IMG/VR virus record: IMGVR_UViG_3300027746_000016
Location: 30,966 to 94,965 of that record
DNA length: 64,000 bases
From: a virus
Strand: one strand, 5' to 3'
In this document: positions 5,147 to 64,000 of the stretch, piece by piece
Layout: the number at the start of each line of letters is the position of its first letter
Position numbering within the stretch: position 1 is the stretch's first letter
Notes under the pieces: generated by a model
Told to the model about the DNA's origin: nothing
Database searches by the model: none
The model's input: the letters and a program-made list of their open reading frames with translations, nothing else
Translations under genes and position numbers: made by a program

Positions 5147-6809
5147 AGTCTGATTTGATATCAGAGAAATGATCAGAATTTTCAATTAATAACTTAATAT
5201 CAAAAAACTCTTCAGGTAAAGGATCATGTGAAATTACAAAAATAGTCATATTATATTTTTTAGAAAAGGTTTTTAATAGGTCTACGACTCTATAGATTGA
5301 ATCTACGTCTAATGATGAAAATACTTCATCTAAAAATAATAAATTAACTTTATGGTGTTTTAATTTTAATAATTCTAAAATACACAATAGAACAATTAGA
5401 TTCATTTTCTTCTGTTCGCCAGCAGATAATGAATCTGGTGATATTTGAATTCCTAAATGAGTAATAATTGGATTAAATTCCAAATCAAATTCAAATGCAA
5501 ACTTAAATTCTAATAATTTAGAGGTTTTTAAAATTTTACGGTTTAACATTGGAATTATTTGACTCATTAATAGTCGCTTCATTCCATTATCTGATAGGAT
5601 ATCTTCCATTTCTTGAGAAATGGCCAATTTAGCCGAATAACCAGCCTTATCAGTTGTTAAATTAGTAATTTCTGACTCAATTGTTGAAATTACTCCATTA
5701 ATATATTCGGTACCAGTCCTTTTAGAGTCAATTTGGTTTAACTCAGATAACTCACGGTTAAGTGGGGATAATAGTCCATCAATTTTATAGAATGAGTCCC
5801 TAGATTCAACTTGTTCTGCCTTTTTTGTATTTAAGTCAGAATTAATTAAGTTAATATTTTCAACCAGCCCAGGTAATAAGTCGGATTGAGTTTTCTTTTT
5901 ATTTAATAACTTGTCTTTTATTGTAATATGTGTTTCATCAGTTAAGTCAGAAAGACAGTGTGGACACTTATTTTTAGAATATAGATCTAATTTTTTCTGA
6001 ATCTCAGTAATTGTATATTGAGTTGAGGCTTTTAAATCACGAGCAACAGTAATACTCTTTTCAATAATTCCAACTTGTGAATTTAAGCTGGTATAAACAA
6101 GTCGCTTTTCTTCTTTTTGATTAGATAATTTAGTAATTTCAGCAGTAAGTTCAGAAATTCTAACTGCTTTAGCTGAATTTAAATCTAATTTTAAATTATC
6201 AAGTTGAGAAATTGAATTTTGTAAAATTGAATTATTATTTAATAAAGTAGAATCAATTGAGTGGATTGAAGTTCTTAAGTCTTTAACCTCTTCTTTAACT
6301 ACTTTAGACATATCATTAACTATATCTAATCCAAATATTTTATCAATGATTTGACGTTTATCGTGCGGACTTAATTTAACAAAGCTTTTAAAATCATTAA
6401 CTGATAGGCTAATTGTATTTGAAAATACGTTAAATGGAATCTTAGTTAATTCTTCTTCAATAAATTCATCAACTCTACGTTTATCAGGTAAATTATGTTC
6501 TGAATTATTAATTAATAACTTTGAAAAATTAGGCTCTAAGCCTCTTTCTATTTCAATTTTATCACCGTTGGCGGCAATAAATTCAATATGAGTATAGGCA
6601 TTTTTATTTATGCGGTTTGGAATCTCTTTGGTTTTACGAATAGATGATTTACCATATAAGGCAACAGTTAATGCATCAGAAATTGATGATTTACCACTTC
6701 CATTTTTACCTTGAACTAAAATAAGTTGAGGATCTTCTGAAAATTTAAAAGTTTGTAATTTGTTTCCGTATGAACAAATATTTTTAAAAGAGAATTGAGT
6801 TATCTTCAT
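5145..6809 (-). CDS. SbcC/Rad50-like recombination ATPase (T4 gp46-like)
   Basis: Walker A GKNGSGKS, coiled coil with CPHC hook, LSAGE signature, LLFLDEVFSSLD, ISH. Confidence 0.92.
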   Translation of the reverse strand: MKITQFSFKNICSYGNKLQTFKFSEDPQLILVQGKNGSGKSSISDALTVALYGKSSIRKTKEIPNRINKNAYTHIEFIAANGDKIEIERGLEPNFSKLLINNSEHNLPDKRRVDEFIEEELTKIPFNVFSNTISLSVNDFKSFVKLSPHDKRQIIDKIFGLDIVNDMSKVVKEEVKDLRTSIHSIDSTLLNNNSILQNSISQLDNLKLDLNSAKAVRISELTAEITKLSNQKEEKRLVYTSLNSQVGIIEKSITVARDLKASTQYTITEIQKKLDLYSKNKCPHCLSDLTDETHITIKDKLLNKKKTQSDLLPGLVENINLINSDLNTKKAEQVESRDSFYKIDGLLSPLNRELSELNQIDSKRTGTEYINGVISTIESEITNLTTDKAGYSAKLAISQEMEDILSDNGMKRLLMSQIIPMLNRKILKTSKLLEFKFAFEFDLEFNPIITHLGIQISPDSLSAGEQKKMNLIVLLCILELLKLKHHKVNLLFLDEVFSSLDVDSIYRVVDLLKTFSKKYNMTIFVISHDPLPEEFFDIKLLIENSDHFSDIKSD

Positions 6810-15387: not shown

Positions 15388-15458
15388 TATAAATAACTTT
15401 AATAGCAAAGTCCAAACATTAAAATCTTTAAAATTGGGAGTTGACTGATAAATAAATA
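15388..15458 (+). promoter_or_regulatory. Late promoter cores upstream of the sheath gene
   Basis: Exact TATAAATA at 15388-15395 and ATAAATAAATA at 15448-15458. Confidence 0.6.
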
Positions 15459-19584: not shown

Positions 19585-19909
19585 GGTCGCTGATTTCAAA
19601 TGTTGTGTCTATATCTTTATTTAACACCGCAACTAGATCATTTGCCATAACTACATGAAAATCTTCACCAGCCCATTTAACATTTAGGCCAGAGTATCTT
19701 TGGTATAGGACATAATCACCTTCTTTTATTGGACACTCAGAATTTTTTGAAACCATATGGCCTACTGCAATAACAGTACCTGTATTTGGACGCTTTCGAG
19801 CCTCAACTGGTAAAATAATACCAGTCTCTGTCTTTTTTTCAACTGAATCTGGCTTAATTAGAATTCTTTCAAACAATGGCTTAAAGCCGGTTTTTGCATC
19901 TGTACTCAT
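19577..19909 (-). CDS. groS: Co-chaperonin GroES
   Basis: KPLFERILIKP, KTETGIILP mobile loop, GTVIAVG, GDYVLY. Confidence 0.92.
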   Translation of the reverse strand: MSTDAKTGFKPLFERILIKPDSVEKKTETGIILPVEARKRPNTGTVIAVGHMVSKNSECPIKEGDYVLYQRYSGLNVKWAGEDFHVVMANDLVAVLNKDIDTTFEISDHA

Positions 19910-21018
19910 TAGTTTTTATAATTTTTTTTAAATTTAAAATAGTTAAATCGCTTTCTATCATTTAACTTAACTGAATTTGCGATAGCCTCAGTTATCTCGG
20001 TTGGAAACATTGCGGTATGTAATCTGATAATAGAACGATTACGTAATAGGTTATTCTGGATCGCTAGAGTTTCGCTAGGCTCATCTATTTTTAAGACTTC
20101 ACATGTAATATTATTAAGTTTAGGCATAAATGCTGAGTCACCCGAATCAATTAGACTCTTAATTGTAGTCCAGTCAAATGATTCCTTAACGAGTTCAATT
20201 ACTCTAGCTGTTTTGGCTGGAGTTAATTTTGGATGAACTCTTGGAATATTATCAGATTTATCACCAGATAAAACTTTTGTTAAAATATCAAGAGCTGGAT
20301 CAATTATAAAGTGTTTATAGTCTTTTTTAGTAAGATTCTCTAATACATTTACCACAGTTGAATTATCTAATGAATCTATTTCAAAATTAAATAGGTCTAC
20401 ATCAGTATTTACAGAATCATTGATATCTGCAGTGGTATAGATTTTCTTAAATTTAGTCATCATTTTTGGCATTATCATAATTACTTTACGAGATCCACCT
20501 TCTAATAATTGAGTTAAGTCAGTATCAACTGACCAAATACAGATATCTTCATTTAAATTTTCGCAAATGTATGCAATTAAGTCATCGCCTTCAGCTCCAG
20601 TAACCCGATTTGATAAGATTCCATATTCCTCGGTTAGAGTAGGTAAAACTTCAGTTTGAAAGTAGTCAAAAAATAGATAAATTTTGTCATCATATTTGCG
20701 GTTACCTTTATATGAAAAGTCGCCAGCTCCATGATCTTCAAACTGCTCTTTTATAAATTTCTTTCTCCAACTCTTTGAGTCAAATACAAAAAATACCGAA
20801 GAGATATTTTCTTTAAAAGGAGCAAAGATACTACCTAAATAATTTAATGAAAACGATTTAAATGCATCTTTGCTAGCCTGTTTTAACATAAATTTATCAG
20901 TTGACCATAAATCTGAAACATAATATTTTTCGCCAATGCTTTTATTTGTAGATAGAATATTTTTTACAATACTTACTGCCACATTCAAAAATGCATTACC
21001 GTCTATTACTATGTTCAT
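19909..21018 (-). CDS. RNase H / 5'-3' exonuclease (T4 rnh, FEN-like)
   Basis: IDGN, VFDSKSWR, YKGNR, EGDDLIA, SVDTDLTQL, GDKSDNIP. Confidence 0.88.
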   Translation of the reverse strand: MNIVIDGNAFLNVAVSIVKNILSTNKSIGEKYYVSDLWSTDKFMLKQASKDAFKSFSLNYLGSIFAPFKENISSVFFVFDSKSWRKKFIKEQFEDHGAGDFSYKGNRKYDDKIYLFFDYFQTEVLPTLTEEYGILSNRVTGAEGDDLIAYICENLNEDICIWSVDTDLTQLLEGGSRKVIMIMPKMMTKFKKIYTTADINDSVNTDVDLFNFEIDSLDNSTVVNVLENLTKKDYKHFIIDPALDILTKVLSGDKSDNIPRVHPKLTPAKTARVIELVKESFDWTTIKSLIDSGDSAFMPKLNNITCEVLKIDEPSETLAIQNNLLRNRSIIRLHTAMFPTEITEAIANSVKLNDRKRFNYFKFKKNYKN

Positions 21019-21021
21019 AAT

Positions 21022-21342
21022 TTAGTTTTTATCAATTGAATTAACTTCTGGTTTTACACTTAATTTAGTAATTGATTTAGCAATTAATTCAGCTTCCTCA
21101 ATTGTATATGCGCCTTTTCCTTGAGCATGAGTGGCGGCTGCAATTAAAACAATTACAGCATGTTCAAGAGTTAAATTGTTTAAAAACTTATTGTAATCTT
21201 CTAGACTTTCATAGCTAATGCTAGATAGCAAAGTAGCTAATGGCTTCTTAGGATTAGTTTCAGAATTTTCAGTTTCAGTCTTGATTTCTTCAACTTCAGG
21301 TTTAGCTGGAGCAGCGGTTGTCATGTATGTAGAGTCTTTCAT
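21022..21342 (-). CDS. Hypothetical protein whose N-terminus copies the SSB tail
   Basis: 106-aa ORF; TAAPAKPEVEE. Confidence 0.7.
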   Translation of the reverse strand: MKDSTYMTTAAPAKPEVEEIKTETENSETNPKKPLATLLSSISYESLEDYNKFLNNLTLEHAVIVLIAAATHAQGKGAYTIEEAELIAKSITKLSVKPEVNSIDKN

Positions 21343-21418
21343 TTTAATATAATTTTTTAAAGATCATTAAATATTGAATCTAATTCATCAACTTCAGGTT
21401 TAGCTGGAGCAGCGGTTG
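21290..21418. repeat. Exact 31-nt direct repeat (21290-21320 and 21388-21418)
   Basis: TCAACTTCAGGTTTAGCTGGAGCAGCGGTTG occurs twice, 98 nt apart. Confidence 0.95.
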
Positions 21419-22400
21419 GTTTAGATGCAGTAGAGCCTAACATATCAGAGTCAATATCAATTGAGATAGAGGTACCCTTTGTTTGAGGAGCGGCTGGCGT
21501 AAATTCTAATGATTCTCCAGCTGGAGCAACAGTTCTTGAAATTGATTTTGTATTTGTAAAATGCTTCTTCATACGTTCATCCTTTAATCCACCTACTAAA
21601 TTATCAATAATTTGTTTATATGGAACAATTGCTTTGATATATTCTGCAACTTTTTCATATTCATAATCAGTCCAATCTTTATAGAAATATTGAGTTAAGT
21701 CAGGAGAATTTTCTTTAAAGTATTTAGAGACAAATTGCATTACCTTTGGATCATTAGAGGTTGGAATTTCCTTGCCTTGAGTTGTAATAATTAATGGGCT
21801 AACTTCGCTCATAAATTTACTTGAACTAAAATCTCTCCATGCTTTGGTTTTACGTTTAATAACTAGCACAAAATCTTTTCCAGCAGTTAATGAAAATGGA
21901 TTAACTTTTTGAATAGTCATTAACTCAGATTCTGGATTAATTTCCTGTTGAATTAAATTATCAATAGTATATCCATATGAATATATTTTAATTTTACCTT
22001 CCATGTTTGGATATTGTGGATCCTTTTTAATGTAAATACATGAATAGAAATTATAGTATCGGTTATAATACTTTTTAATTTCTTCTACAATTGAAGGCTC
22101 GTCTGTTGCTAATTTCTTTAATTCCATATCAAGAGACCATAAGATTGATGGACTTCCATTGGTAGAAGGACAATCAACGAGTAGGCGCTCATTGGTTAAA
22201 GGGTTAATTAATTTAGCAGCATACTTTTTGTATTTGCTCTTTGATGGATCTCCAACCCAAGGAATAAATCGAATAATCGATTTGTAAATTCCATTTTGTC
22301 CTTGATCTGGACCTGGATTGTAAATGTTGTCATCGGTTTTGCGTTGACTTGCGGCCTTGCCGGTAAAGTCGTCTGTGTTTAGATTGAATAGATCTTCCAT
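21357..22400 (-). CDS. Single-stranded DNA-binding protein (T4 gp32-like)
   Basis: IIRFIP, DPQYPNMEGKIKIYSYG, NPFSLTAGKDFVL, acidic tail ending DSIFNDL. Confidence 0.85.
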   Translation of the reverse strand: MEDLFNLNTDDFTGKAASQRKTDDNIYNPGPDQGQNGIYKSIIRFIPWVGDPSKSKYKKYAAKLINPLTNERLLVDCPSTNGSPSILWSLDMELKKLATDEPSIVEEIKKYYNRYYNFYSCIYIKKDPQYPNMEGKIKIYSYGYTIDNLIQQEINPESELMTIQKVNPFSLTAGKDFVLVIKRKTKAWRDFSSSKFMSEVSPLIITTQGKEIPTSNDPKVMQFVSKYFKENSPDLTQYFYKDWTDYEYEKVAEYIKAIVPYKQIIDNLVGGLKDERMKKHFTNTKSISRTVAPAGESLEFTPAAPQTKGTSISIDIDSDMLGSTASKPTAAPAKPEVDELDSIFNDL

Positions 22401-22435
22401 TTTTCTTTTTATTGATTTTTATATTACTTATATAA

Positions 22436-22463
22436 ATTATACTATATAATTTAATTCTGGTTT
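22436..22463 (-). promoter_or_regulatory. Pre-late promoter AAACC-N17-TATAAT
   Basis: Upstream of the SSB gene. Confidence 0.6.
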
Positions 22464-22467
22464 CAAT

Positions 22468-22497
22468 AAAAAAGGGCATAGTGATTAGCTTGCCCTT
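22468..22497 (-). terminator. Intrinsic terminator
   Basis: AAGGGCA/TGCCCTT stem; T run on the minus strand. Confidence 0.7.
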
Positions 22498-22519
22498 AAT
22501 TTAATAATAAGTAATTAGA

Positions 22520-22711
22520 TTATGCTTTAGGAGCAGTAGTCTTTGTTGCTTGAATGTGGGTACGACCTTCTTGACATGAAGCTTTAATTTCTTGTAAAAG
22601 GGCACGAGAACGAGTTCCAGCTGTTTTATTACCTTTTTCGTAAAATTTAGTAGTTTCAGTTTCTAATTGACTGATTGAGTTTTTAAGGGTTTCTAACCAT
22701 GTTGGTGTCAT
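22520..22711 (-). CDS. Hc1-family (bacterial histone H1-like) small protein
   Basis: KFYEKGNKTAGTRSR...EIK matches the Hc1 core KGNKAAGTRAR. Confidence 0.8.
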   Translation of the reverse strand: MTPTWLETLKNSISQLETETTKFYEKGNKTAGTRSRALLQEIKASCQEGRTHIQATKTTAPKA

Positions 22712-22733
22712 ATTAATATAGTATTTTTAGAGT

Positions 22734-22760
22734 ATTATATTAAGAAATATCACCCGGTTT
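22734..22760 (-). promoter_or_regulatory. Pre-late promoter AAACC-N16-TATAAT
   Basis: Upstream of the Hc1-like gene. Confidence 0.6.
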
Positions 22761-22805
22761 TAAGTATATTAAAAAACATCACTAATTTTAACCTTTAGCT
22801 AGTGA

Positions 22806-23357
22806 TTACTTTGATCTTAAAAATACTACTTCTAAATTGTCACTAGTTGGATTTTTAAAATTGTCATCTGAATCAAATGTAACATCAACTGTACCTTTAT
22901 CTACTCCAAGTAAACCATCGGTTACTTCTTCTTTAAACTCCGAGTAAATATTTGCAGGAAAGTCTCTTCTTCCAGCAAGGGCAGCCATTACTAAATCTTT
23001 ATCTGATTCCATTTTATGAACCTCTAACCACTTAGTAAGAGCCTCTGGCTCTATTTCATATTGAGTAAATCTCTTAACACCACCTTGGCCATCGTGTGCA
23101 CCGAACCATTTTTTATTCTCTGCATCCTGAATAAAAATAATTTTTGGAGAAGTAGTAGCCGCTGGAGTAACCGGCGGAGCATTCGGATCAGGCGGAAGGC
23201 CGGCTCCCATATCTGGAGGAGGTGGCATTGCCATATCTGGAGCAGGAGGCGGTGGCGGCGGCGGTGGCGGTGGTATTGCAGCATCTGGCGCAGGAGGTGC
23301 TGCAGGCTCATCCTCTAATAATAAATTCTTAAATTCTTTAAATTCTAATATTCTCAT
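22806..23357 (-). CDS. Polyproline-containing protein, putative internal head protein
   Basis: MRILEFKEFKNLLLE N-terminus, Pro/Ala linker with 11 consecutive Pro, globular C-domain; exact TATAAATA upstream. Confidence 0.7.
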   Translation of the reverse strand: MRILEFKEFKNLLLEDEPAAPPAPDAAIPPPPPPPPPPAPDMAMPPPPDMGAGLPPDPNAPPVTPAATTSPKIIFIQDAENKKWFGAHDGQGGVKRFTQYEIEPEALTKWLEVHKMESDKDLVMAALAGRRDFPANIYSEFKEEVTDGLLGVDKGTVDVTFDSDDNFKNPTSDNLEVVFLRSK

Positions 23358-23383
23358 AGGTATTAATTATATTTTTACTAGTT

Positions 23384-23391
23384 TATTTATA
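23384..23391 (-). promoter_or_regulatory. Late promoter TATAAATA
   Basis: Exact T4 late consensus 26 nt upstream of the ATG at 23357. Confidence 0.65.
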
Positions 23392-23392
23392 C

Positions 23393-23419
23393 AAAAAAAG
23401 CGGGAAATTAATTTCCCGC
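23393..23419 (-). terminator. Intrinsic terminator
   Basis: GCGGGAAAT/ATTTCCCGC stem plus T7 on the minus strand. Confidence 0.8.
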
Positions 23420-23436
23420 CTAAATTAGGTTATAGA

Positions 23437-23646
23437 TTAGTGAAGCCTTAAAGTTGAACCGGCTTGATGGATTGGATCATATGGGCAGTGTTTACAACCA
23501 TTTCCGCAACATGAACCTCGCTTTGTATGATATTGTTTGGTCATTATTAGATTACCGTTTTTGTAATAATAGTCGGCATTTTTATAACTACTAATATATT
23601 CAACATATAACTGATAAATCCAGTCATATTTAGCTGGAATTATCAT
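23437..23646 (-). CDS. Small Cys-rich protein (DUF5522-like)
   Basis: YYYKNG...T..YH.KRGSCCGNGCKHCPY. Confidence 0.75.
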   Translation of the reverse strand: MIIPAKYDWIYQLYVEYISSYKNADYYYKNGNLIMTKQYHTKRGSCCGNGCKHCPYDPIHQAGSTLRLH

Positions 23647-25499
23647 TGTATTTCACAAGCTCCTCCAGCACAGGCTAATTCGCCAGATAGGTCAGTATTA
23701 TCAACCATTTCAATAACTTTAGATAAGTCAATTCCAGTTAATGATTTTAACATTTCTTCGTATTTTTCTTCAGAGCAGTCCTCAAATGGAGCTTGAATAT
23801 AGGTTCCACCGTTATATGGTAAAACCGATAAGCCATTATAGAATGATTTATTATCCCACATCCATTCACCAACAGTTTCCCATTCGTCTGGTTTAATTGA
23901 AACTGTTGCAGAAATATTATGAGTATTTTGACCGGTACGATGACCAGTTTTTACCCAATTTGAATAAAAAGATTTTACTCTTTCTAGTAATTCAATTGCA
24001 GATTCATTTCTAAATATTGAACCGGCTGGTGCTTTTTGTGGAACTGAAATTACAGCAGTATCATGCGGACGGAAGTACTCATCTTCAAGTAGTTCAGGAT
24101 GATAAATTGCAAGATAAGAATAAATTGCCTCATTTTTTCCAACTCTAATTCTACGAATATAGTGATCATTATGCCATGCATGAATTCCAGAAGAAGTTCC
24201 CAATACCAATGATGAAGTTCCTGATGGTTTAATTGTAGTACATCTGGCTGATGCATTTATCTTAATTTGTTTTGCAACAATTACATTGGTTTCTTTTACT
24301 AGGTCAGCAGCCTGTTTAAGATCAAATTTTTGGGCTGATCCTGAGCCTATACCAGTCATACCAACACCAATTAAAGCATCCTTTTCAGTAGTACGTTGCC
24401 ATATTGGACGTAAATAATGAAAATTAGTATAGCCAGCTTGCAGAGTTCCAATAAATGAAGCAGCTTTAACTCTTTCATTTAAATCTTCTTGTGTAGTAAT
24501 ATCAGAGACATTAACTTCACATAAGTTACAAAATTGAAATGGACGTAGAGCAATTTCACAGCATGGATTAGTACCCCAATCTTTATCGTTTGACAAATAA
24601 ATTCCAGGTTCTCCAGTTCCACTTGCTTCAATTTTTTTCCATAAGTCCATAAAGAAGCTCTTAGTTATCTTATTTCTTAATAAGACCGCTGAGTTATTTG
24701 CTCGGCCCCTTTGTGGATTAAGTTCCCACCATGATCCACTCTTTGAAGAAATCATATTTTCATCATCTGCACTAAATAAAGAAATTAATGCAGCTCGACG
24801 AATACCTCCAGCCAATACCGCATCGGCAATATGACAAACAATATCGTGTACTTCAATACAAGATAATTTATCATTATCAACCTTAGAGTCAAGAATTCCC
24901 TGTATTTTAATTAAACACTCTTTTAAGGGTTGAGGGCCTGGTGCTTTACCACCTGACGTAACTAATAGTGCACCTTTTTGGCGAATATCAGAAAAGTCAA
25001 AATTAATAGTAGAACCACCTTCAAAATAAGACTTCATTAATAATTTAACCGCATCTGCCCAGCCTTCAATTGAGTCTCCAATTAAATATCTACGAGATTT
25101 AGTAGTATTAGGTTTTCTAATTTCTGGAAGTTCGTCAACATGGTGTTTCTGTACTGAATAGCCTACACCAGTTCCGCCTAATAATAAAAACATAATTTCG
25201 CCAAATGCACGCCAATCATCGATCGGTAAATATGCACAATTGTAGATACGATTTGGAGAAATTTCAATTGGTTTACCACCAAACTGTAAACTACGCATTG
25301 ATGGTAGAATTTTTTTATCATACACAAATTTATAAGTCTCATTAATCTCAGCAGTTAACTGTGGATATTTCTTTATGTGCATTTCTTTATTTCGAGTTAC
25401 AAGTTCTTCCCATGTTTCTCTTCTCTGTACATCATTACGAAACCTGGCGTATTTCATATAAACCGTTACGTCTGATAAAATTTCACTTGCTAAATTCAT
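23643..25499 (-). CDS. nrdJ: Class II (adenosylcobalamin-dependent) ribonucleotide reductase
   Basis: LPSMRSL, YNCAY, GGIRRAALI, TNPCCEI, CNLCE, TIKPSGT, C-terminal ACAGGACE redox pair. Confidence 0.9.
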   Translation of the reverse strand: MNLASEILSDVTVYMKYARFRNDVQRRETWEELVTRNKEMHIKKYPQLTAEINETYKFVYDKKILPSMRSLQFGGKPIEISPNRIYNCAYLPIDDWRAFGEIMFLLLGGTGVGYSVQKHHVDELPEIRKPNTTKSRRYLIGDSIEGWADAVKLLMKSYFEGGSTINFDFSDIRQKGALLVTSGGKAPGPQPLKECLIKIQGILDSKVDNDKLSCIEVHDIVCHIADAVLAGGIRRAALISLFSADDENMISSKSGSWWELNPQRGRANNSAVLLRNKITKSFFMDLWKKIEASGTGEPGIYLSNDKDWGTNPCCEIALRPFQFCNLCEVNVSDITTQEDLNERVKAASFIGTLQAGYTNFHYLRPIWQRTTEKDALIGVGMTGIGSGSAQKFDLKQAADLVKETNVIVAKQIKINASARCTTIKPSGTSSLVLGTSSGIHAWHNDHYIRRIRVGKNEAIYSYLAIYHPELLEDEYFRPHDTAVISVPQKAPAGSIFRNESAIELLERVKSFYSNWVKTGHRTGQNTHNISATVSIKPDEWETVGEWMWDNKSFYNGLSVLPYNGGTYIQAPFEDCSEEKYEEMLKSLTGIDLSKVIEMVDNTDLSGELACAGGACEIQ

Positions 25500-32092: not shown

Positions 32093-34427
<2,335 letters not shown>

Positions 34428-35796: not shown

Positions 35797-35865
35797 TCAT
35801 TTATTACCGGCAGTCAATAACTCCTATTACTGGCGCTTTTAAATCTAATCGGCATAAATGTTTTG

Positions 35866-35872
35866 ATAAATA
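35866..35872 (+). promoter_or_regulatory. Late promoter core ATAAATA
   Basis: 24 nt upstream of the ATG at 35897. Confidence 0.6.
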
Positions 35873-35896
35873 ACCCAAAGTACTCTAATAATAAAA

Positions 35897-38800
35897 ATGA
35901 ATATTGATAATCTAGTATTTTTTGATAAAAATGGTGAATCTTATAACTTCGGCCAAACCAGTTCTGGAAACTGGGAAGGCGCCGACTATTTTTTACCAAT
36001 ATCACTGGAACTATACGATTGCTCCAATATTTTTATTTTAGAAAATACCAATGGAGTGTATACCTTTCCTAAAATGGAATCAGGTTCAAGCTTTGAGGTA
36101 AAATGGAAAACTGCAAATAATAAAACTAATTTATTTTTATTTAATGTATTAGTCCAAGGAACTGGTTCTGCTGCCTATAACTATCTTGATAAACAGGAGT
36201 ACCTTACAATTAACCATAGTGATTTTGGACAGACTGGAACCCTTGCTTTAACCTATCCATTACAGTTAAATATTGCATTTACTCCATCTGATGAAATTGC
36301 ATATGCTAGAGTTTTACAAATTTATTATAAAACAACAACTACCTCAACCCTAGTATTAGAGCTCACGTTTTATGGAGAAGGAGAGGGCGAAGATGAGAGA
36401 CTTCGGATATGGTTAGCTAACTTTGGAATTAAATTTAATAGACAAGATGCTCTACTATTAAAAGATTATGATTTAAAAGAAGGATTAGTTGATTATAAAG
36501 AGCTTAATGCAATTAGAAAATTAATACTTGTAAACCGCGATCAAATCTATCCGTATATTGGAACCTATAAGGGTTTATTAAATATACTTAGCTTAATGGG
36601 TTATCGTGACGTATTAAGAGTAAAGGAGTATTGGAAAGATATTGATACACGATCTCCTTATTATACTAAATTTGCAATGGTTGATATTACTGATTTATTA
36701 AATATCACCGAGGACGATACTCTTGATTTAGTTGATACCAATAATCAAATAAAAACTGGCAGTAAATTTGAAAAAACAGAATTTCTTGCTTTAGCCTATC
36801 AATTTTCAAAAGCTGGAGATACATATGACGACGATGGCTTACCTAATGTTATTACAACTACGGATTTTACAGTAAATGAAATATTTTTTAAATTATATGG
36901 GGTTGTTGTAAAATTAAAAGATGAAATTATACCAATCAATGTTGTAATTAAAGATATTATAGGAGAATTTATCTATTTTGAAAAATTTAATATTCGATAT
37001 TGGATAGACGAAACCACAATTGAATCATTTAGTCTTAGCGATGAATACCAAATTAATATAATTGAACCGCCTGACTATGTTTCAAGCTTTAACCATACAA
37101 TTAGTGCAAATAATTTAATATCGTTTAATGGTGCGTTTGTACCTAGTAATAATACAGTAGATACAATTCAAAATGCAAATTCTAACTATTTAAAAATTAG
37201 AGACATTAAATCCCTGTATCGTAAGGCTAATGGAATTTCAATATTTCCAGAAACATCATTTAATTTAGGACTAACTGATCCGTACGATGAAAGCCAATAT
37301 TATTCGGTTGATAAAAAGGATACCTTAATCCAAGCAATATCAGACTACTATTCAACAATTAAATCATTTATTTTTGAATATCCAAATAGTGTAAGCCCAT
37401 TAGATCAGGGCGATGATACTTCAGATAAAATAGGGTGCCCAATTGTATTAGAGGCATATGTTCCAGATTTAACACTACAACAGTTAGATGGAATACAATT
37501 TATTGATTTTATAACAGTAGCCGCAACCACTTCATCGAGTACAAATACAATCGGTACCGGCCTTAAATATTTTAGTTGTGCAACCATACAGCCGTTTGCA
37601 GTAGGCGACTATATTAAAGTATATCAATCAGCTAATTATACTAATTATATGATAGGCCGAATTACTGAAATAAACCCGCCTAGCATGTCGGGTAATACAA
37701 TAATAATTGATGTATATTCTTATAATGGAGAAGGTACACTCACCGGCTGGACCGTACAATTAATTGATAGACACTTTACAATCGGTAATCTTAAATATAA
37801 AAATGTTTATGAAATTGAATGGATTATAACAGGTCCTCAAAATTATAGATTTGAATGGAGAACCAGTACTATTGGTACTAATAAAATTCCTCACATATTA
37901 CCACATACTGGAGAATATACAATTGAGGTTAGAGCTCATGACATGTCAGGGGCAGTCTCTATTAAATTTAAAAAACTTACAGTTTCTCCAGACCAACCTC
38001 TTATCCAAGTTTTTACTAAAATACCTGATAAATTTAGATATGATTTTAAGAATTTACATAATATAACAATTGGAGACTTGGCAGATAGCCCATTATATTA
38101 TCCATATGCAAATGTAATAAACGCCGGCCTATCTTCAATTTCAAATCACTATTTAGATTGGAATACCTACTCTAATTATTATGGAGTAGGCTCAAACCAT
38201 AATGATATTAAACTTTCAAATACAAAAAATTCATTAATTCCATATTCTCAATCAACTGACACAATTAAAAATAATTGGGGAACAGGTTCAGCTAATGGAC
38301 AGGCCACTATTTCTAATTATTTAACTGTTAGCCTTGGAGATCTATACCATGTTAACTTTAGTAATTTTGGATTGACTGCCGATCAATTAGATGGATTCTA
38401 TATTACGCTAAGAGGCGAAGATTATCAATATAATTTAAACTCAAATTTAGTAGCAATTAAATTTGGTGGATTTGATGAAATTAATTTAACTACACTCGCT
38501 AATCCAACAATTGAAGAGCTATTAAACTATTTACAAAATACTTCTGAAGCTGGCTTATCTAATTATTCATATAAAATAATTGAAACAATAGTAGGGCCTA
38601 GCGCACTTCCTCTTAGCCGAATAAAAGCAACCGCTAACTATCAGGATCCGCAAAATCATTCAATTATTAAATTAATATCTATTGTAACTGGATTAGATTC
38701 AAGCCTAAATAAATGGACTCCAAGTTCTGCTAATTTAACAATATCATCAACTGATCCATTAGTATACGGCCCATCTAGTTTACCCCAAACGGTATACGGC

Positions 38801-56130: not shown

Positions 56131-56171
56131 TATTTATTTGAGAGGTATTTCCGGTAACACTGGGATAAATA
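56131..56171. promoter_or_regulatory. Divergent pair of late promoter cores
   Basis: TATTTAT at 56131-56137 (minus) and ATAAATA at 56165-56171 (plus). Confidence 0.55.
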
Positions 56172-56188
56172 ACAAAAAGATGGTTTAA

Positions 56189-58270: not shown

Positions 58271-59623
58271 ATGTATACTGATATAAACAAGCGAAACCTA
58301 TTTGAAAATGTAAATCTTGGATTTGAATTCGAGTTTTTTTCACCAACTAGTAGAAAAGAACTTTCTGAAAAATTAACTAAATATCTTGGTAAAAAGGTAG
58401 AATGGTCTGAATCATATCATTCACGTCAACCGGTATCTCAAAACGTATTTAAAATTGAACCTGATTTTTCAGGCGGATTTAAAATGAATGAGCTTATTAC
58501 TGGAGTAATGCCGTATAATGAAGCAATTCATGTAATGTTTAAGGTTTTTAATTTTATTGCAGAACATGGATTTACCAGTGAAAGAACAGGAATTCATATT
58601 AATATTTCATTAAATGAGGATGCTTTAGAGCTAAAAAGTAAATTACAGACCCTAAATGTATTTAAATATATTTTAAATTTAGATGAGGCTAAAATATTTG
58701 AAATGTGGCCATCTGCGAAATCTAGGACCCAAAGAATTTATAAAAACTCAGTATTAAATATTTATCCAAAAACTAAATTTATTGCTGAAAAAAGTTTGCT
58801 ATATTCTGGTCCAGCAAATCCCAGTAATTTTAACCTACCACATTCTAAATATTTTGGTCTAAATTTTACAAAGTTATCAAATAATTATCTTGAAGTTAGA
58901 TATGCAGGCGGTGAAGGTTATCAAAATAAACGAAAAGAGTCAGTTGACCTAATTAACTATATAGCAGAGAGTCTCTATTCAGTTTTACAAACCAATAATG
59001 AATACTCAGTAAATGAAACCCGAAAAATAAATGATATATTAAAGGTTCATACTGATTTAATAAATTCAGTTAAAACATTTGAAGGATTTAAGAGATCATA
59101 TCCTGAACTTGAACTATATATTGACTTAAGAGATGATCCTCGAATTGTTGAAGCTAACTATGCCAATGTTAAAGAAAAAATATTTGAGTTAATTACAACT
59201 GGTAATCTCCGAAAAGGCTTAATTAATTATGATACTTCGGCCCAACGCCTTCAATTAAAGGACTCAAAACTAAAAGAGGGATTTTCAATTAATAATATTG
59301 ATTTTATAAATTGTTCAATTGAAGGAGAAATCACAAATTGTAACCTATTTGGTAGTAAAGTAAGATCATCACATATTAGAGAGTGTAAGATTATAACCGG
59401 TAATGATATACGATATTGTTATATTAAAAATTGTCAATTTGAAAGAGATGGAGTTAACCGAATTGACCTTACCTATATTAAAAGTAAACCTGAATATCCT
59501 ATTTATGCTGATTTAAATGAGTGTATTATTAGATCAGGCACGCTTGGTTTAAACTGTAAAGTTGATTCAAAAACAGAATTTATAAAAGCATATACACCAT
59601 CCAATAATTCAGATAAGTTATAA
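58271..59623 (+). CDS. Putative amidoligase (COOH-NH2 ligase type 2) with C-terminal beta-helix-like repeats
   Basis: GFEFEF, IEPDFS, ELITG, TGIHINIS, KYFGLNF, LEVRYAGG; NCSIEGEITNCNLFGSKVRSSHIRECKI repeats. Confidence 0.72.
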   Translation: MYTDINKRNLFENVNLGFEFEFFSPTSRKELSEKLTKYLGKKVEWSESYHSRQPVSQNVFKIEPDFSGGFKMNELITGVMPYNEAIHVMFKVFNFIAEHGFTSERTGIHINISLNEDALELKSKLQTLNVFKYILNLDEAKIFEMWPSAKSRTQRIYKNSVLNIYPKTKFIAEKSLLYSGPANPSNFNLPHSKYFGLNFTKLSNNYLEVRYAGGEGYQNKRKESVDLINYIAESLYSVLQTNNEYSVNETRKINDILKVHTDLINSVKTFEGFKRSYPELELYIDLRDDPRIVEANYANVKEKIFELITTGNLRKGLINYDTSAQRLQLKDSKLKEGFSINNIDFINCSIEGEITNCNLFGSKVRSSHIRECKIITGNDIRYCYIKNCQFERDGVNRIDLTYIKSKPEYPIYADLNECIIRSGTLGLNCKVDSKTEFIKAYTPSNNSDKL

Positions 59624-59637
59624 TACGATTAGCAATA

Positions 59638-59644
59638 ATAAATA
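59638..59644 (+). promoter_or_regulatory. Late promoter core ATAAATA
   Basis: 25 nt upstream of the GTG at 59670. Confidence 0.55.
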
Positions 59645-59669
59645 AAGAAAAAGATACCAATTAATAAAC

Positions 59670-62630
59670 GTGGCAGTTCAAGTTAAACTTACCTCAGTTA
59701 AAAAATTAAGTTCAGTTAGTACAGCGTCAATGGTTGAACTATCTAACTTTAATTTTACAGCAATTGCATCTGCCGTTAGAGAATTTTTAGTATCTATTAA
59801 TTATCAACAAGGAGTTGATGCAGTATCAGTTGATATTAATACAATTTCAGCCGATACTTTAAATATTAGAAATGGACTTTCGGTATATGGTGCTCAATTA
59901 GAAAGCGGTAATTATCCAAAAGTTATTGAATTAGACCCAAGCGGCTCAATTATTTCTAAAAATATTATATTAGAGGATGTAGTTGATGCAAAACGAGTTA
60001 GATTAAGAGTTTTTGGACTTTTACCAAGTGTAGGTATTCCTGGTGAACTCGTATATATCGGTACTCAACTTTCTAAATCTGAAGGAATTTATGTTTGGTT
60101 AAATTCAACCGGCTGGACCCTAGTTGCTGGAACAAATGGAGTTGCTAAGTGTATGCAGGAGGTTTCAATGACAGCCACTGCTAATGTTATTAGTGCAGAT
60201 AATTCGGTTGTTTCTCCTCAAGGTTTATTTCTATTTCCAGCCCCGCTTGCTGCAACTGGTTTTTTATTATTTGTTAATGGCCATCAAATTACAGTAGGAA
60301 ATTCGGACTTAACTGCCCCGGCCTATTTAAGTAAAGATTCAGGAGTCACAGCCTCTTCTTTTAATGAAGTTGATGTGACTGACCAACTATGTTGGAATCC
60401 ATCGGTTGCTGGATTTAATTTAGATACTTCTGATACAATTACACTAAGGTATTTTACAGAAGATCCATATTGTTCACAAACTGGCTATACTTGCATAACC
60501 GGAATTGCAAGTTCTTCTACTACTACCTGGAATCAATTTACTATTCAAATAATTGGAACCCCAACTGAGCCTGGCCCAATTACTATTTGTAAAATACCTA
60601 ATTTAACCGCCGGCTCTGCCACTTTACCTACCGGTTATTCATTAAGTAATACAATATTATCATATACAATATCCGATCCAACTGGAATCTATCCAACTGG
60701 AGCAATTGTTAAATTTAAAGTACCTCAATCACTAAGTGAAGCCGAGTTTAATTTAATTAAAATATTTCATGAGGTTGATTCAGTTCTAGTTGATGAAACC
60801 GTTAAGGTTGGAGATATTGCAGGAGATTTATATATTCCAAACTATGCAAGCCGATTAATTTATGCACAGGTAGATTCATTTAGTCCATTTTATTTAATTC
60901 AAGGCCAGAGTATCACAACTACGACTAGTTCAACAAGTACAACAACTACGCTTAACTTAACTACAACTACTACATGTGCGCCTAATTTAATAAATTATTT
61001 AATACCTAGTGTATTAGCACCAACTCAAATTACTTTTTATGGAACTCCAGCTGGGCCATTTAATGTCGTATTTACCGATTCATTAGGAGGAGTACACGAC
61101 TTAACCGGAATAATTGGATCAATGATTAGCTTAGGTTGGAATTTTAACTTATCTAATCCAAACTATTCAGGTATTCCATCTACTGTTGGAACATATGTAT
61201 TTACAAATTCATCAAACTGTTCGTATACAATTTCCGTACCGGTACCTGAGCTTAATACAACCACGACAACTACTCAAGCCTATGCTGGTGGAATTACATC
61301 TACCTCTACCACATCTACAACAACAGCGTCATGCGCAAACTCATTAACTGCAACCCCTAATCCATTTAATAATCCAACCACTATAACTTTTATAGGCTCG
61401 CCAATCGGCCCATATTCAGTTATGTTTACTGAATTAGACAGTGGAATTCAATACTATTTAGGTGCAGGAATTAAAACACCATGGGTATTTGATAGAAAAA
61501 ATTACTATTTGGGAGCAATTAATAGTTCATATGGAACTTATAAATTTATTTCACCTACTTGTACTATTAATATACCAGTAATTCGAGTAACAACCTCAAC
61601 CAGTACTACCAGTACATCAACGAGTACTACCAGTACCTCAACTAGTACTACCAGTACATCAACGAGTACTACCAGTACCTCAACTAGTACTACCAGTACA
61701 ACTACTGCAGCCCCAACTACTACCAGTACATCAACCAGTACTACAAGTACAACAACAGCTGCACCGACTACTACAAGCACATCAACTAGTACTACCAGTA
61801 CAACTACTGCAGCCCCAACTACTACGAGTACATCAACCAGTACTACCAGTACAACAACTGCTGCTCCAACCAGTACAACAAGTACCTCAACTAGTACTAC
61901 TAGTACGACCACGGTTGCTCCATCATTCCAAACACTAACCGGCTATTCTAATAGTAATTCAACTAAATTCTGTGCAGCTAATGCAAATGCAGCATTTACT
62001 GTCTATACTGCAACTGACTCAACCCTAGCCTCTGCGTATGCTAATGGTGCTCAGATTTTCTCAGACACTGCATTAAGTAGCCTAGCTGCTGCTGCCATTT
62101 ATGGTAATTCAGATGGAGGTGGCGGAACCATTTGGTATACTTGGGACGGTAATACATTTACCACTACTGGTACTTGTGCAGGCGGTTCAACTACTACAAG
62201 TACAACAACTGCTGCTCCAACCAGTACAAGTACAACAACTGCTGCACCGACTACTACCAGTACCTCAACGAGTACTACGAGTACAACCACAGCTGCGCCA
62301 ACGAGTACAACAAGTACCACAACTGCTGGCCCAACCAGCACTACGAGTACAACAACAGCGGCTCCGCCTGCATACCAAACACTAACCGGATATTCCAACG
62401 CTAATTATCCTAAGTTCTGTTCAGCCAATGCAAATGCCGCATTTACGGTCTATACTGCAACTGATTCAACACTAGCCTCTGCGTATGCTAATGGTGCTTC
62501 TATTTACTCAGATACTGCATTAACAACCCTAGCGACGGCTGGCGTTTATGGTAATTTAGATGGAGGAAGCGGGGTAAATTGGTATACTTGGGATGGTACT
62601 ATGTTTACCACTACCGGTTCTTGTGCATAG
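59670..62630 (+). CDS. Mucin-like modular virion protein (Thr/Ser/Ala/Pro tracts separating Cys-paired domains)
   Basis: (TSTSTTS)n and TTTAAP repeats; two near-identical ~85-aa C-terminal domains. Confidence 0.75.
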   Translation: MAVQVKLTSVKKLSSVSTASMVELSNFNFTAIASAVREFLVSINYQQGVDAVSVDINTISADTLNIRNGLSVYGAQLESGNYPKVIELDPSGSIISKNIILEDVVDAKRVRLRVFGLLPSVGIPGELVYIGTQLSKSEGIYVWLNSTGWTLVAGTNGVAKCMQEVSMTATANVISADNSVVSPQGLFLFPAPLAATGFLLFVNGHQITVGNSDLTAPAYLSKDSGVTASSFNEVDVTDQLCWNPSVAGFNLDTSDTITLRYFTEDPYCSQTGYTCITGIASSSTTTWNQFTIQIIGTPTEPGPITICKIPNLTAGSATLPTGYSLSNTILSYTISDPTGIYPTGAIVKFKVPQSLSEAEFNLIKIFHEVDSVLVDETVKVGDIAGDLYIPNYASRLIYAQVDSFSPFYLIQGQSITTTTSSTSTTTTLNLTTTTTCAPNLINYLIPSVLAPTQITFYGTPAGPFNVVFTDSLGGVHDLTGIIGSMISLGWNFNLSNPNYSGIPSTVGTYVFTNSSNCSYTISVPVPELNTTTTTTQAYAGGITSTSTTSTTTASCANSLTATPNPFNNPTTITFIGSPIGPYSVMFTELDSGIQYYLGAGIKTPWVFDRKNYYLGAINSSYGTYKFISPTCTINIPVIRVTTSTSTTSTSTSTTSTSTSTTSTSTSTTSTSTSTTSTTTAAPTTTSTSTSTTSTTTAAPTTTSTSTSTTSTTTAAPTTTSTSTSTTSTTTAAPTSTTSTSTSTTSTTTVAPSFQTLTGYSNSNSTKFCAANANAAFTVYTATDSTLASAYANGAQIFSDTALSSLAAAAIYGNSDGGGGTIWYTWDGNTFTTTGTCAGGSTTTSTTTAAPTSTSTTTAAPTTTSTSTSTTSTTTAAPTSTTSTTTAGPTSTTSTTTAAPPAYQTLTGYSNANYPKFCSANANAAFTVYTATDSTLASAYANGASIYSDTALTTLATAGVYGNLDGGSGVNWYTWDGTMFTTTGSCA
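61590..62370 (+). repeat. Low-complexity coding repeats encoding TSTSTTSTTTAAP units
   Basis: ACCAGTAC/ACTACC-rich arrays at about 61590-61920 and 62188-62370. Confidence 0.9.
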
Positions 62631-62644
62631 CACACACTTAACTA

Positions 62645-62671
62645 AATCCATAACTAATTTTTTAGTATAAT
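62645..62671 (+). promoter_or_regulatory. Pre-late-type promoter AATCC-N16-TATAAT
   Basis: TATAAT ends 5 nt before the glycosyltransferase ATG (near-leaderless). Confidence 0.45.
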
Positions 62672-62676
62672 TTAGT

Positions 62677-63633
62677 ATGTTAACAAAGAAAATCATATTT
62701 TTATCAGCTCAACCAGATGTGCCGTATTTTCATTGGCAAGTTGAGGTAATGATTCATAATTTTATTAAACACGGAATTAATCCAAATTGGATTGAAATTC
62801 TATGGGCCTATGATAATGAACCTTCCGTAGAACTATTATCATTAAGCGCAAAGTATCCATATGTTAGATTTTTTAGCTATAAAAAAACCCCTATTGATAA
62901 TTTTGGATATATTCCAATTCTAAGACCTGATATTATTGAACAGCATTTTATTAAGTATCCAGAACTTAGAGGTGAAACTATTTTATATCATGATTCAGAT
63001 ATTATTTTTAGAGAATTACCAAATTTTGATGAAATGCACGGGGATCTTTATTGGTATTTAAGTGATACAATTTCGTATATTGGTGCTGAATATATTAGAT
63101 CAAAATCAAATGATCTATTTGTTGATATGTGTAATATTGTTGGAATTTTACCAGAGGTGGTTGATCAAAATCAAAAAAATTCAGGTGGAGCCCAATATTT
63201 AATGAAAGGTGTAACCGCTAATTATTGGAAAGGTGTAAAAGATGATTCACTAGCTCTTTACAAATATATGGTAGATCGAGAAAATTTAGAAAGAACTACC
63301 TTAACTCCAGAAGAATTACAGGTGTATAATCCAGTTCAAAAATGGTGTGCTGATATGTGGGCAGTTCTTTGGGGAGCTTGGAAATTAGGTGCACAAACTG
63401 TAATTGAGCCAGGCCTTTCATTTAGTTGGGGTAGTTCTAATTTAGCTGAATATTTAAATAATAATATAATGCACAATGCTGGAATTACCTCAAATCAAGA
63501 AGGCAAGGTTTTTTATAAAGGCGAATTTATTAATAGAAATCCATTTGAATTTGATTTTTCCAATATAGATCAGGATACTGCATCTGCTAAATACGTAGAT
63601 GCAATTATTTATGCAAAAGAAATGAGGTCCTAA
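62677..63633 (+). CDS. GT-A glycosyltransferase resembling SGT1/HPAT (GT96/GT95) protein O-glycosyltransferases
   Basis: YFHWQ....IHNF, YIPILRP, HDSDIIFR (DxD), SGGAQY, WCADMWAVLWGA, MHNAG. Confidence 0.7.
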   Translation: MLTKKIIFLSAQPDVPYFHWQVEVMIHNFIKHGINPNWIEILWAYDNEPSVELLSLSAKYPYVRFFSYKKTPIDNFGYIPILRPDIIEQHFIKYPELRGETILYHDSDIIFRELPNFDEMHGDLYWYLSDTISYIGAEYIRSKSNDLFVDMCNIVGILPEVVDQNQKNSGGAQYLMKGVTANYWKGVKDDSLALYKYMVDRENLERTTLTPEELQVYNPVQKWCADMWAVLWGAWKLGAQTVIEPGLSFSWGSSNLAEYLNNNIMHNAGITSNQEGKVFYKGEFINRNPFEFDFSNIDQDTASAKYVDAIIYAKEMRS

Positions 63634-63655
63634 TTTATTATCTAGGTTTTTGCTG

Positions 63656-63662
63656 ATAAATA
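63656..63662 (+). promoter_or_regulatory. Late promoter core ATAAATA
   Basis: 27 nt upstream of the ATG at 63690. Confidence 0.55.
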
Positions 63663-63689
63663 ATATCAGAAGAAAAAACCTTTACCTAG

Positions 63690-64000
63690 ATGTCGAATAA
63701 GATTAAAATTAAACAAATTGACCTTGCCGGGGTTTCTCAAGATAATACTAAAACTAGATTTCTAGCAATAAATGATACTGGAACAGTAGTATATTGGAAT
63801 GATTCTCCACAGGCTGGAACAAGCGGAACCGGTGGATCAGGCTCTAGTGGAACTTCAGGTACATCAGGTATAAGTGGAACTTCAGGTACATCAGGCATAA
63901 GTGGTTCTTCTGGAACTTCCGGCATAAGCGGTTCAAGTGGTTCTTCTGGAACTTCCGGCATAAGCGGTTCAAGTGGTTCTTCTGGAACTTCCGGCATAAG
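63690..64000 (+). CDS. 5' part of a (Gly-x-Ser)n repeat protein, MSNKIKIKQIDL...GTSGISGSSGTSG; runs off the window
   Basis: ATG at 63690, open to the window end; 9-nt-period repeats from about 63815. Confidence 0.75.
   Translation, partial: MSNKIKIKQIDLAGVSQDNTKTRFLAINDTGTVVYWNDSPQAGTSGTGGSGSSGTSGTSGISGTSGTSGISGSSGTSGISGSSGSSGTSGISGSSGSSGTSGI

Follow-up and report, generated by a model that had tools for sequence, protein, structure and literature searches.

To our knowledge, glycosylation of virions by phage enzymes has been documented essentially only in mycobacteriophages, where it alters antibody recognition. Papers that cite the work of Freeman et al. (2023, Cell Host Microbe) describe phage glycosyltransferases of the mycobacteriophages Che8, Corndog and Myrna as proposed or shown to place O-glycans on Ser/Thr-rich parts of virion proteins, and according to the same citing papers the glycans are attached at the C-terminal ends of the capsid and tail-tube subunits. 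A second group of described enzymes comprises the plant and algal hydroxyproline O-arabinosyltransferases (HPAT, family GT95) and the peptidyl-serine galactosyltransferases SGT1/SERGT1 (family GT96); the two families have been described as related to each other (PMC8012813), and GT95 has been predicted to be GT-A-like (PMC8476585). Here we analyse a 64,000-nucleotide (nt) stretch of viral DNA, referred to below as the window, which forms the last 64 kb of the 94,965-bp IMG/VR record IMGVR_UViG_3300027746_000016. It encodes, on the plus strand, a soluble glycosyltransferase of 318 amino acids (aa) with a GT-A fold (positions 62677-63633), preceded by a modular 986-aa protein with long Thr/Ser tracts (positions 59670-62630). 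The original prediction had placed three open reading frames (ORFs) here, these two and a collagen-like ORF downstream of the enzyme, and all three were found in place on the plus strand.

We propose that the 318-aa enzyme is a peptidyl-Thr/Ser O-glycosyltransferase acting on the tracts of the upstream 986-aa protein to give glycosylated stalks, a reading to which we assign a probability of roughly three in four. The locus shows the sequence pattern of virion O-glycosylation, a phage glycosyltransferase together with Ser/Thr-rich segments, and in relatives of the locus such segments are found on proteins annotated as major tail proteins. From comparative genomics the case for a new enzyme family with its acceptor signal, set within the known kind of system in which phages glycosylate their own virions, appears well supported. 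In contrast to the mycobacteriophage systems, the setting is a Bacteroidota-type jumbo phage and Bacillota phages, known here from their genes, and the tracts in the window are long internal linkers in the 986-aa protein rather than short C-terminal tails.

The association between the enzyme and Thr-rich proteins was analysed in 80 related IMG/VR loci, 72 of which carried distinct enzymes at 39-75% identity, and neighbouring genes were scored by position. A Thr run was defined as a run of at least seven Ser/Thr residues including at least four Thr. Across the 72 viral loci such a run was encoded at position -1 in 74% and at position -2 in 21%, while all other positions from -7 to +7 scored 0-6%. 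A density measure (at least 60% Ser/Thr in 40 residues) gave the same picture, with 64% at -1, 22% at -2 and no more than 6% at other positions. Linkage of homologues to Ser/Thr-repeat genes had been set beforehand as the test on which the proposal could fail, and the value of 74% at -1 upholds it. The tracts in the relatives are of the same kind as those of the 986-aa protein, being TTTTTTAAPTTTT-type linkers between small domains. When the tracts were masked, the partner proteins (n=94, from 83 loci) fell into 24 clusters without detectable mutual similarity; what the loci share is thus the tract, rather than a pair of genes inherited together. Of ten diverse partner proteins annotated with PHROG, only one received a name, that of a major tail protein. 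The recurrence of the pairing in many unrelated phages suggests that the enzyme probably sugar-coats these stretches. A full-text literature search returned no paper on this enzyme family or on poly-Thr tails of phage proteins. The pairing can also be viewed in a cultured phage, Chryseobacterium phage MA9V-3, in which the enzyme gene (L001:8013-8918) has Thr/Ser-rich proteins encoded upstream of it (L001:5618-8007); these are annotated as hypothetical, the product at -1 having 428 aa and a peak Ser/Thr density of 0.62, and that at -3 having 245 aa and a peak of 1.0.

In prophages of Bacillus, Clostridium, Staphylococcus aureus, Halobacillus and Gracilibacillus, and in Enterococcus phage phiFL1A, the enzyme gene lies directly 3' of the major tail protein gene, the annotation of the latter coming from phiFL1A. 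The major tail protein of these Bacillota loci carries a C-terminal poly-Thr tail, for example one ending in PYPTTTTTTTTTGA. The capsid-sized protein encoded at -6 is also poly-Thr-ended in 10 of 12 Bacillota loci, as is sometimes the ~107-aa head-module protein beside it. These poly-Thr C-termini on tail-tube and capsid-sized proteins match the C-terminal sites that the citing papers report for mycobacteriophages. Loci of this kind are L142, L144, L151 (an S. aureus prophage), L157, L158, L159, L162, L163, L143 and L003, at ~4.3-8.0 kb in each.

The candidate acceptor in the window starts with GTG, where relatives have ATG at the same aligned position. It contains 211 Thr and 133 Ser (344 Ser/Thr in all), of which 181 lie inside four tracts, called by a Ser/Thr fraction of at least 0.6 in a sliding window. 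An N-terminal region (aa 1-408) is followed by four small globular modules parted by Thr/Ser/Ala/Pro tracts: tract 1 at aa 409-438 (positions 60894-60983), tract 2 at aa 537-562 (61278-61355), tract 3 at aa 635-757 (61572-61940), made up of TSTSTTSTTTAAP-type repeats with 66 Thr and 33 Ser, and tract 4 at aa 829-899 (62154-62366). No other of the 82 ORFs in the 94,965-bp record has long Ser/Thr runs; this one has 15 runs of at least five residues, the longest of 39. The earlier description of a mucin-like, Thr/Ser-rich late protein is borne out by these 344 residues and four tracts, its late timing being suggested by upstream motifs. The equivalent proteins encoded before the enzyme in the related loci L004-L011 share 46-62% identity with the N-terminal region, and a Pfam and PHROG search of the 986-aa protein returned no family. 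An AlphaFold (AF) model of the N-terminal 408 aa, built from an alignment of eight sequences, had a predicted local distance difference test score (pLDDT) of 56, with residues 1-117 unmodelled. Its matches to ZU5/FIIND/GAIN-like and Ig-like beta-sandwiches (Z 6-8.8) and to some phage baseplate chains (Z 5.8-6.5) were within noise and were not used. The place of the gene among very large structural-type genes, and the upstream motif that it shares with them, point to the virion as the probable location of the protein.

The enzyme contains, in order, the motifs YFHWQ, YIPILRP, HDSDIIFR, SGGAQ and WCADMW, with HDSD at residues 105-108, and this order, given in the original prediction, was confirmed in the translation. 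Its sole PHROG match was phrog_4417 (E 5e-63), a family of 'unknown function'; no match was found in Pfam (E <= 1) or NCBIfam, and searches of PDB sequences with the single enzyme sequence and with a profile gave chance-level matches only. The family is large (2802 relatives when clustered at 90%, forming 848 clusters when the cut-off is 50% identity) and occurs in 77 cultured phage records, among them phages of Lactobacillus, Enterococcus, Staphylococcus, Lactococcus and Clostridium, and also the above-mentioned MA9V-3, the enzyme of which is the closest cultured relative at 40% identity. Individual cultured carriers are the Enterococcus phages phiFL1A and VPE25, Clostridium phage phiCTP1 and the Lactobacillus phages SAC12B and Semele. 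An AlphaFold2 (AF2) model built from 47 homologues (pLDDT 97, predicted TM-score 0.93) consists of a single GT-A domain. In structural comparisons of this model the best 26 matches were all GT-A transferases (Z 10-14.6), the top solved structures being glycogenin (14.6), Skp1 alpha-galactosyltransferase (14.3), LgtC (14.1), the catalytic domain of UGGT (13.9) and GlyE (13.5). Foldseek returned 260 PDB matches at E <= 1e-3, and the 50 listed were all glycosyltransferases, with GT8, GT24, GT6 and GT34 at the top. The enzyme had been predicted to be a glycosyltransferase with a DxD motif, and the fold of the model, the Foldseek matches and the conserved DxD agree with this; the listed matches were all glycosyltransferases, none of them a T4-type DNA glucosyltransferase. 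D106, D108 and H266 are invariant in the 47 homologues (34-76% identity), and we take them, from knowledge of the family, to be the DxD/His metal ligands of a GT-A enzyme. This invariance of the DxD and the His argues for a conserved catalytic site. No membrane segment was detected in the enzyme, the maximal Kyte-Doolittle mean over 19 residues being 1.07.

The nearest solved structures, of the GT8 type, align over 211-246 residues at a root-mean-square deviation of 3.3-4.4 (Z 13.5-14.6), with a TM-score of ~0.45 for GT8, and share the DxD and a C-terminal His. Several GT8-type enzymes act on proteins or protein-bound glycans, GlyE being a transferase of the pneumococcal serine-rich-repeat protein pathway. 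In contrast to these likenesses, sequence identity is 6-13%, that of a fold-level relative and not of a member of the same family. Membership of the enzyme in CAZy GT8 was considered and rejected, since hhalign gave a probability of 13% and there was no PF01501 match; the likeness is structural only. The GT8-like nearest structures suggest that the mechanism may be a retaining one.

The sequence kinship of the enzyme lies elsewhere. A look-alike search of the ESM Atlas with the enzyme returned the HPAT family, PF23452, in 22 of 30 named clusters. A scan of genomes with the Pfam model turned up bacterial PF23452 proteins (E 1e-28 and 1e-24). The relatives collected for these all carry PF23452, many under the JGI names 'peptidyl serine alpha-galactosyltransferase' or 'hydroxyproline O-arabinosyltransferase', and 24 of them, each above the family threshold, were aligned for comparison. 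When the phage family was compared with these 24 proteins by hhalign, the match extended over 225 columns with a probability of 95.7% (E 9e-9), and the motifs YxxWQ, YxP..(R/N), DxD, WxA(D/E)MW, IxH and KxxY were in register. Three controls were run with the phage family: a five-sequence GT8 alignment gave a probability of 13% (E 2e-3) over 60 columns around the DxD, the reversed HPAT alignment 1.1%, and the GT2/GT7C-like second domains of fused homologues 0.3%. By these sequence comparisons the kinship of the enzyme to the HPAT family is real and specific at the superfamily level. Of the plant-type GT95/GT96 kinship in the original prediction, therefore, what stands is profile-profile homology to bacterial PF23452 members, and what does not is membership of the HPAT family itself. 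The phage enzyme and the plant HPAT and SGT1 enzymes have further points in common, in that the motifs shared with the bacterial PF23452 members are accompanied by a predicted GT-A-like fold on both sides and by an association with repetitive structural proteins rich in hydroxy amino acids. Unlike the plant enzymes, which are Golgi type II membrane proteins (PMC8012813), the phage enzyme has no membrane anchor, and its likely acceptor is Thr and not hydroxyproline (Hyp) or Ser-Hyp4. The solved chains searched included no plant extensin-glycosylating enzyme.

Searches of the phage record and five genomes for PF23452 and DUF7164 gave a single HPAT match, in one of the genomes (G002), with none for DUF7164 and none in the record. 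A search for longer relatives of the bacterial HPAT alignment returned two bacterial fusion proteins only. P0364 (1204 aa, Arenicella sp.) joins a 2-oxoglutarate-Fe(II) oxygenase domain of the prolyl-hydroxylase type (PF13640), an HPAT domain (PF23452) and a GlcNAc-transferase domain (PF11397), and P0365 is a similar bacterial fusion, PF13640 being annotated in P0364 only. From its domains, this architecture looks like a complete hydroxylate-then-glycosylate pathway in one polypeptide.

In the mechanism that we propose, a soluble, metal-dependent (DxD plus His) GT-A enzyme would be made in the infected cell and would move a sugar from a nucleotide-sugar donor to the hydroxyls of Thr (and Ser) in the four tracts. 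The transfer would take place in the cytoplasm, before or during assembly. The tract linkers would then become stiff, extended, protease-resistant, mucin-like stalks parting the small globular modules of a protein that would sit on a probable tail or baseplate appendage, and the first sugar may be lengthened or decorated by enzymes encoded in a separate glycan gene cluster of the record. The 986-aa protein as acceptor, the O-linkage and the presence of the stalks on the virion are what we infer from the locus, and the coat so formed might serve in shielding, adhesion or stiffening.

A different order of events, in which the enzyme is an elongating or branching transferase adding to a glycan started on the Thr tracts by a host enzyme or one of the phage cluster, has in its favour that glycan cluster and the many homologues fused to a second glycosyltransferase domain. 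Homologues occur fused to GT2, GT6, GT7C-like, GT25-like, Gly_transf_sug and methyltransferase domains (for example P0205, 1161 aa; P0206, 992 aa; P0131, 779 aa; P0127/P0128, 575-597 aa), and fusion to a second glycosyltransferase domain suggests that multi-step glycans are built by single polypeptides. In these fused forms, however, the phrog_4417-type domain is most often the N-terminal, constant part. Moreover, no other transferase was seen in the structural module of small siphoviral prophages, where the enzyme gene adjoins that of the poly-Thr tail protein, and its nearest sequence relatives, those of the HPAT family, are named as peptide-initiating enzymes. We thus regard elongation as unlikely and retain direct transfer to the Thr/Ser tracts as the preferred reading.

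The bacterial relatives offer a second context in which this reading can be viewed. In 52 of 80 bacterial genome loci a second transferase domain was fused to the enzyme domain, with no adjoining Thr-run protein; the genera represented are Chitinophaga, Pedobacter, Sphingobacterium and Mucilaginibacter. These loci encode a C39-peptidase ABC exporter (31-32 of the 52), HlyD (24 of 52) and LanC-like proteins (12-13 of 52), and a GT11-like gene is also found in clusters of fused relatives, as in L089:1-16930 (Chitinophaga filiformis). Peptides with double-glycine (GG) leaders and Thr-run cores adjoin the fused relatives, one of them, L126:2253-2498, having 13 consecutive Thr. A composition-shuffled control for such leader peptides gave none in 51 loci. 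Further GG-leader peptide sites are L103:7262-7531 (minus strand), L135:7608-7856, L124:3948-4175, L137:4000-4236 and 6452-6724, L111:12273-12515 (minus strand) and L091:4179-4373. By gene content, the loci of the fused relatives are probably bacteriocin-type clusters, similar to those for ribosomally synthesised and post-translationally modified peptides, and the Thr-run leader peptides are candidate members of a so far undescribed class of peptides that Bacteroidota would glycosylate and export. Glycocins, such as those of the sublancin-type S/O-glycosyltransferase systems, are the nearest described peptides, and known glycocin transferases are of the GT2 type. The fused relatives resemble glycocin systems in their C39-peptidase ABC exporters, HlyD, LanC-like proteins and GG-leader peptides; in contrast to what is seen at the window, their clusters are not part of a phage locus. 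With Thr-rich leader peptides beside the bacterial members of the family, the bacterial context points the same way as the phage pairing.

This bears on the possibility that the target is not a protein but, for example, the bases of phage DNA or teichoic acid, lipopolysaccharide or capsule, and that the Thr-rich neighbours of the enzyme share a late or structural operon with it and nothing more. T4 alpha- and beta-glucosyltransferases have a GT-B fold, and T4-type DNA glucosyltransferase chains were absent from the listed structural matches of the enzyme, the model of which is a single GT-A domain; the GT-A fold alone would still leave room for other GT-A DNA-modifying transferases. DNA glucosylation and serotype conversion are the best-known roles of phage glycosyltransferases (PMC12619734), the GT-A fold is silent on the acceptor, and 22% of the viral loci have no adjoining Thr-run gene. 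A shared operon, however, does not readily account for an enrichment confined to -1 and -2, with 0-6% elsewhere, or for pairing across 24 unrelated partner families. The bacterial relatives lie in peptide-export clusters with Thr-rich leaders and not in DNA-modification or envelope loci, and the enzyme lacks the membrane segment or signal peptide needed for an envelope-facing role. We therefore hold a non-protein target to be very unlikely. That the tracts are plain, flexible, unmodified linkers, and the transferase-like protein non-catalytic or engaged in an unrelated role, is highly improbable, for while low-complexity Thr/Pro linkers are common in secreted bacterial proteins, no change of the DxD aspartates or of the His was seen in 47 homologues, the most distant at 34% identity, and the tight gene-order coupling across families would be left unexplained.

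Several points nevertheless weigh against peptidyl-Thr/Ser transfer as we propose it. The family is known from gene order, sequence and predicted fold, and the enzyme could, as discussed, extend a glycan begun by another transferase. It scores below the Pfam HPAT threshold, with only 1 of the 47 homologues matching PF23452 (E 0.23), and it thus belongs to a sister family and is not a member of GT95/96; the homology test, moreover, was made with bacterial PF23452 members and not with plant HPAT or SGT1. In 16 of the 72 viral loci a Thr run is encoded at neither -1 nor -2, and the loci are not phylogenetically independent of each other, a concern that the 24 partner families lessen. Finally, the N-terminal model of the 986-aa protein, with its low pLDDT, gives middling beta-sandwich matches, and its virion location is drawn from gene context.

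A wider reading, towards which we lean slightly on the strength of the comparative evidence, is that phrog_4417 and the fused bacterial relatives together form a large, so far undescribed family of peptidyl-Thr O-glycosyltransferases, a prokaryotic and viral sister of plant GT95/GT96. Poly-Thr would then be a portable glycosylation tag borne by at least 24 unrelated virion proteins, and the same tag would be carried by exported leader-peptide bacteriocins of Bacteroidota. The tagged proteins would include tail tubes, capsid-sized proteins and fibre or baseplate appendages, and the carriers would be phages of Enterococcus, Staphylococcus, Lactobacillus, Clostridium and Bacteroidota.

The third ORF, a neighbour of the proposed pair, lies downstream of the enzyme gene (positions 63690-64000, plus strand) and covers the 5' portion of a fibre gene with collagen-like (Gly-Thr/Ser/Ile-Ser)n repeats. 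It is seen as an open-ended ORF of 103 aa (63690-63998), cut because the window ends at the contig end, and it matches the collagen triple-helix repeat of Pfam (PF01391, E 1.1e-7) and tail-fibre PHROGs. In relatives, collagen-like genes downstream of the enzyme (+1 to +4) encode 2200-2900 aa. They make up 4% at +1 and at +2 overall and are found only in the lineage of the window (L004-L011 and L084). The original prediction had taken this Gly-X-Ser protein as a second substrate; it shows no family-wide linkage to the enzyme, and the gene was rejected as a co-substrate as it is not enriched across the family.

The conserved element before the enzyme gene differs from that before its two neighbours. 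A late-promoter-like motif, ATAAATAA, lies ~25 nt 5' of the gene for the 986-aa protein (positions 59638-59645, plus strand) and is conserved in L004-L011, where a TGATAAATAAC-like element is kept at the same place 5' of the orthologous poly-Thr gene. The motif recurs 5' of the collagen-like gene (63656-63663, plus strand), and L004-L011 have it as CTGATAAATAAC 3' of the gene for the enzyme. For both neighbours of the enzyme gene the TGATAAATAAC-type element stands ~25-35 nt 5' of the gene. Its core is also seen ahead of the sheath gene and of those at 35897, 56189 and 63690. Sites of this GATAAATAA/ATAAATAA motif in the window are 15447-15455, 35865-35873, 56164-56172, 59638-59645 and 63655-63663; standing ~25-40 nt 5' of the sheath gene and of a number of large structural genes, it is in every case on the strand of the gene that it precedes, and the relatives share it. 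Across the whole window GATAAATAA was not over-represented (5 found, 3.6 expected). The motif looks like the late promoter of this phage lineage, to judge by two features only, its placement ahead of structural genes and the fact that relatives have kept it. The enzyme gene is preceded instead by AGTATAATTTAGT, which occupies the 13 nt directly before its ATG (62664-62676, plus strand) and is nearly identical in L004-L011 and L084; the spacer around it varies in the relatives while the element itself is nearly invariant. It may be a promoter element of the -10/-7 type or a translation-initiation region. It had been claimed that a pre-late promoter serves the enzyme and late promoters its neighbours. 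The difference between the conserved upstream elements of the enzyme and of its two neighbours is real; the timing assigned to them, pre-late against late, is drawn from the motifs only.

The record has an estimated completeness of 37%, implying a phage of roughly 250 kb, with a GC content of ~31% and a gene for a 1017-aa tail sheath protein. A megablast comparison of the 8-kb region with cultured phages gave no match. The host is likely to be a member of the Bacteroidota, judging only from the low GC, from the nearest relative in culture and from a 254-kb contig that was binned with a Bacteroidetes metagenome-assembled genome (69% identity). The window also encodes a ribonucleotide reductase (23643-25499; phrog_367, E 4.5e-126) and a GroEL-type chaperonin (32093-33664; phrog_5725, E 1e-160). 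Directly 5' of the gene for the 986-aa protein lies that of a 450-aa protein (58271-59623), the N-terminal 130 aa of which weakly match Amidoligase_2 (PF12224, E 1.5e-5), and the ORF of 449-450 aa found at -2 in relatives is syntenic with it. The glycan-type gene cluster mentioned above lies outside the window, on the minus strand at record positions 19635-24545, ~7-11 kb before the window start. Its members are Glyco_trans_1_2 (E 3e-15), a GT10 fucosyltransferase-like protein (1.4e-11), DUF5672 (1.2e-19), a hexapeptide acyltransferase (3e-11), weakly GT2-like and weakly O-methyltransferase-like proteins and a 220-aa protein without a family. These enzymes may extend or decorate the first sugar; nothing ties the cluster to the enzyme locus.

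If the proposed activity is correct, sugar-coated virion proteins would be widespread, their carriers including cultured phages and prophages of Enterococcus, Staphylococcus aureus, Lactobacillus, Lactococcus and Clostridium as well as in large aquatic phages, with consequences for phage stability, for adsorption and for immune recognition in therapy. A large family of 'unknown function' would gain a function, and with it a very simple acceptor signal, the poly-Thr run. Plant extensin-glycosylating enzymes would gain bacterial and viral relatives, and the Bacteroidota would gain a class of glycosylated bacteriocin-like peptides.

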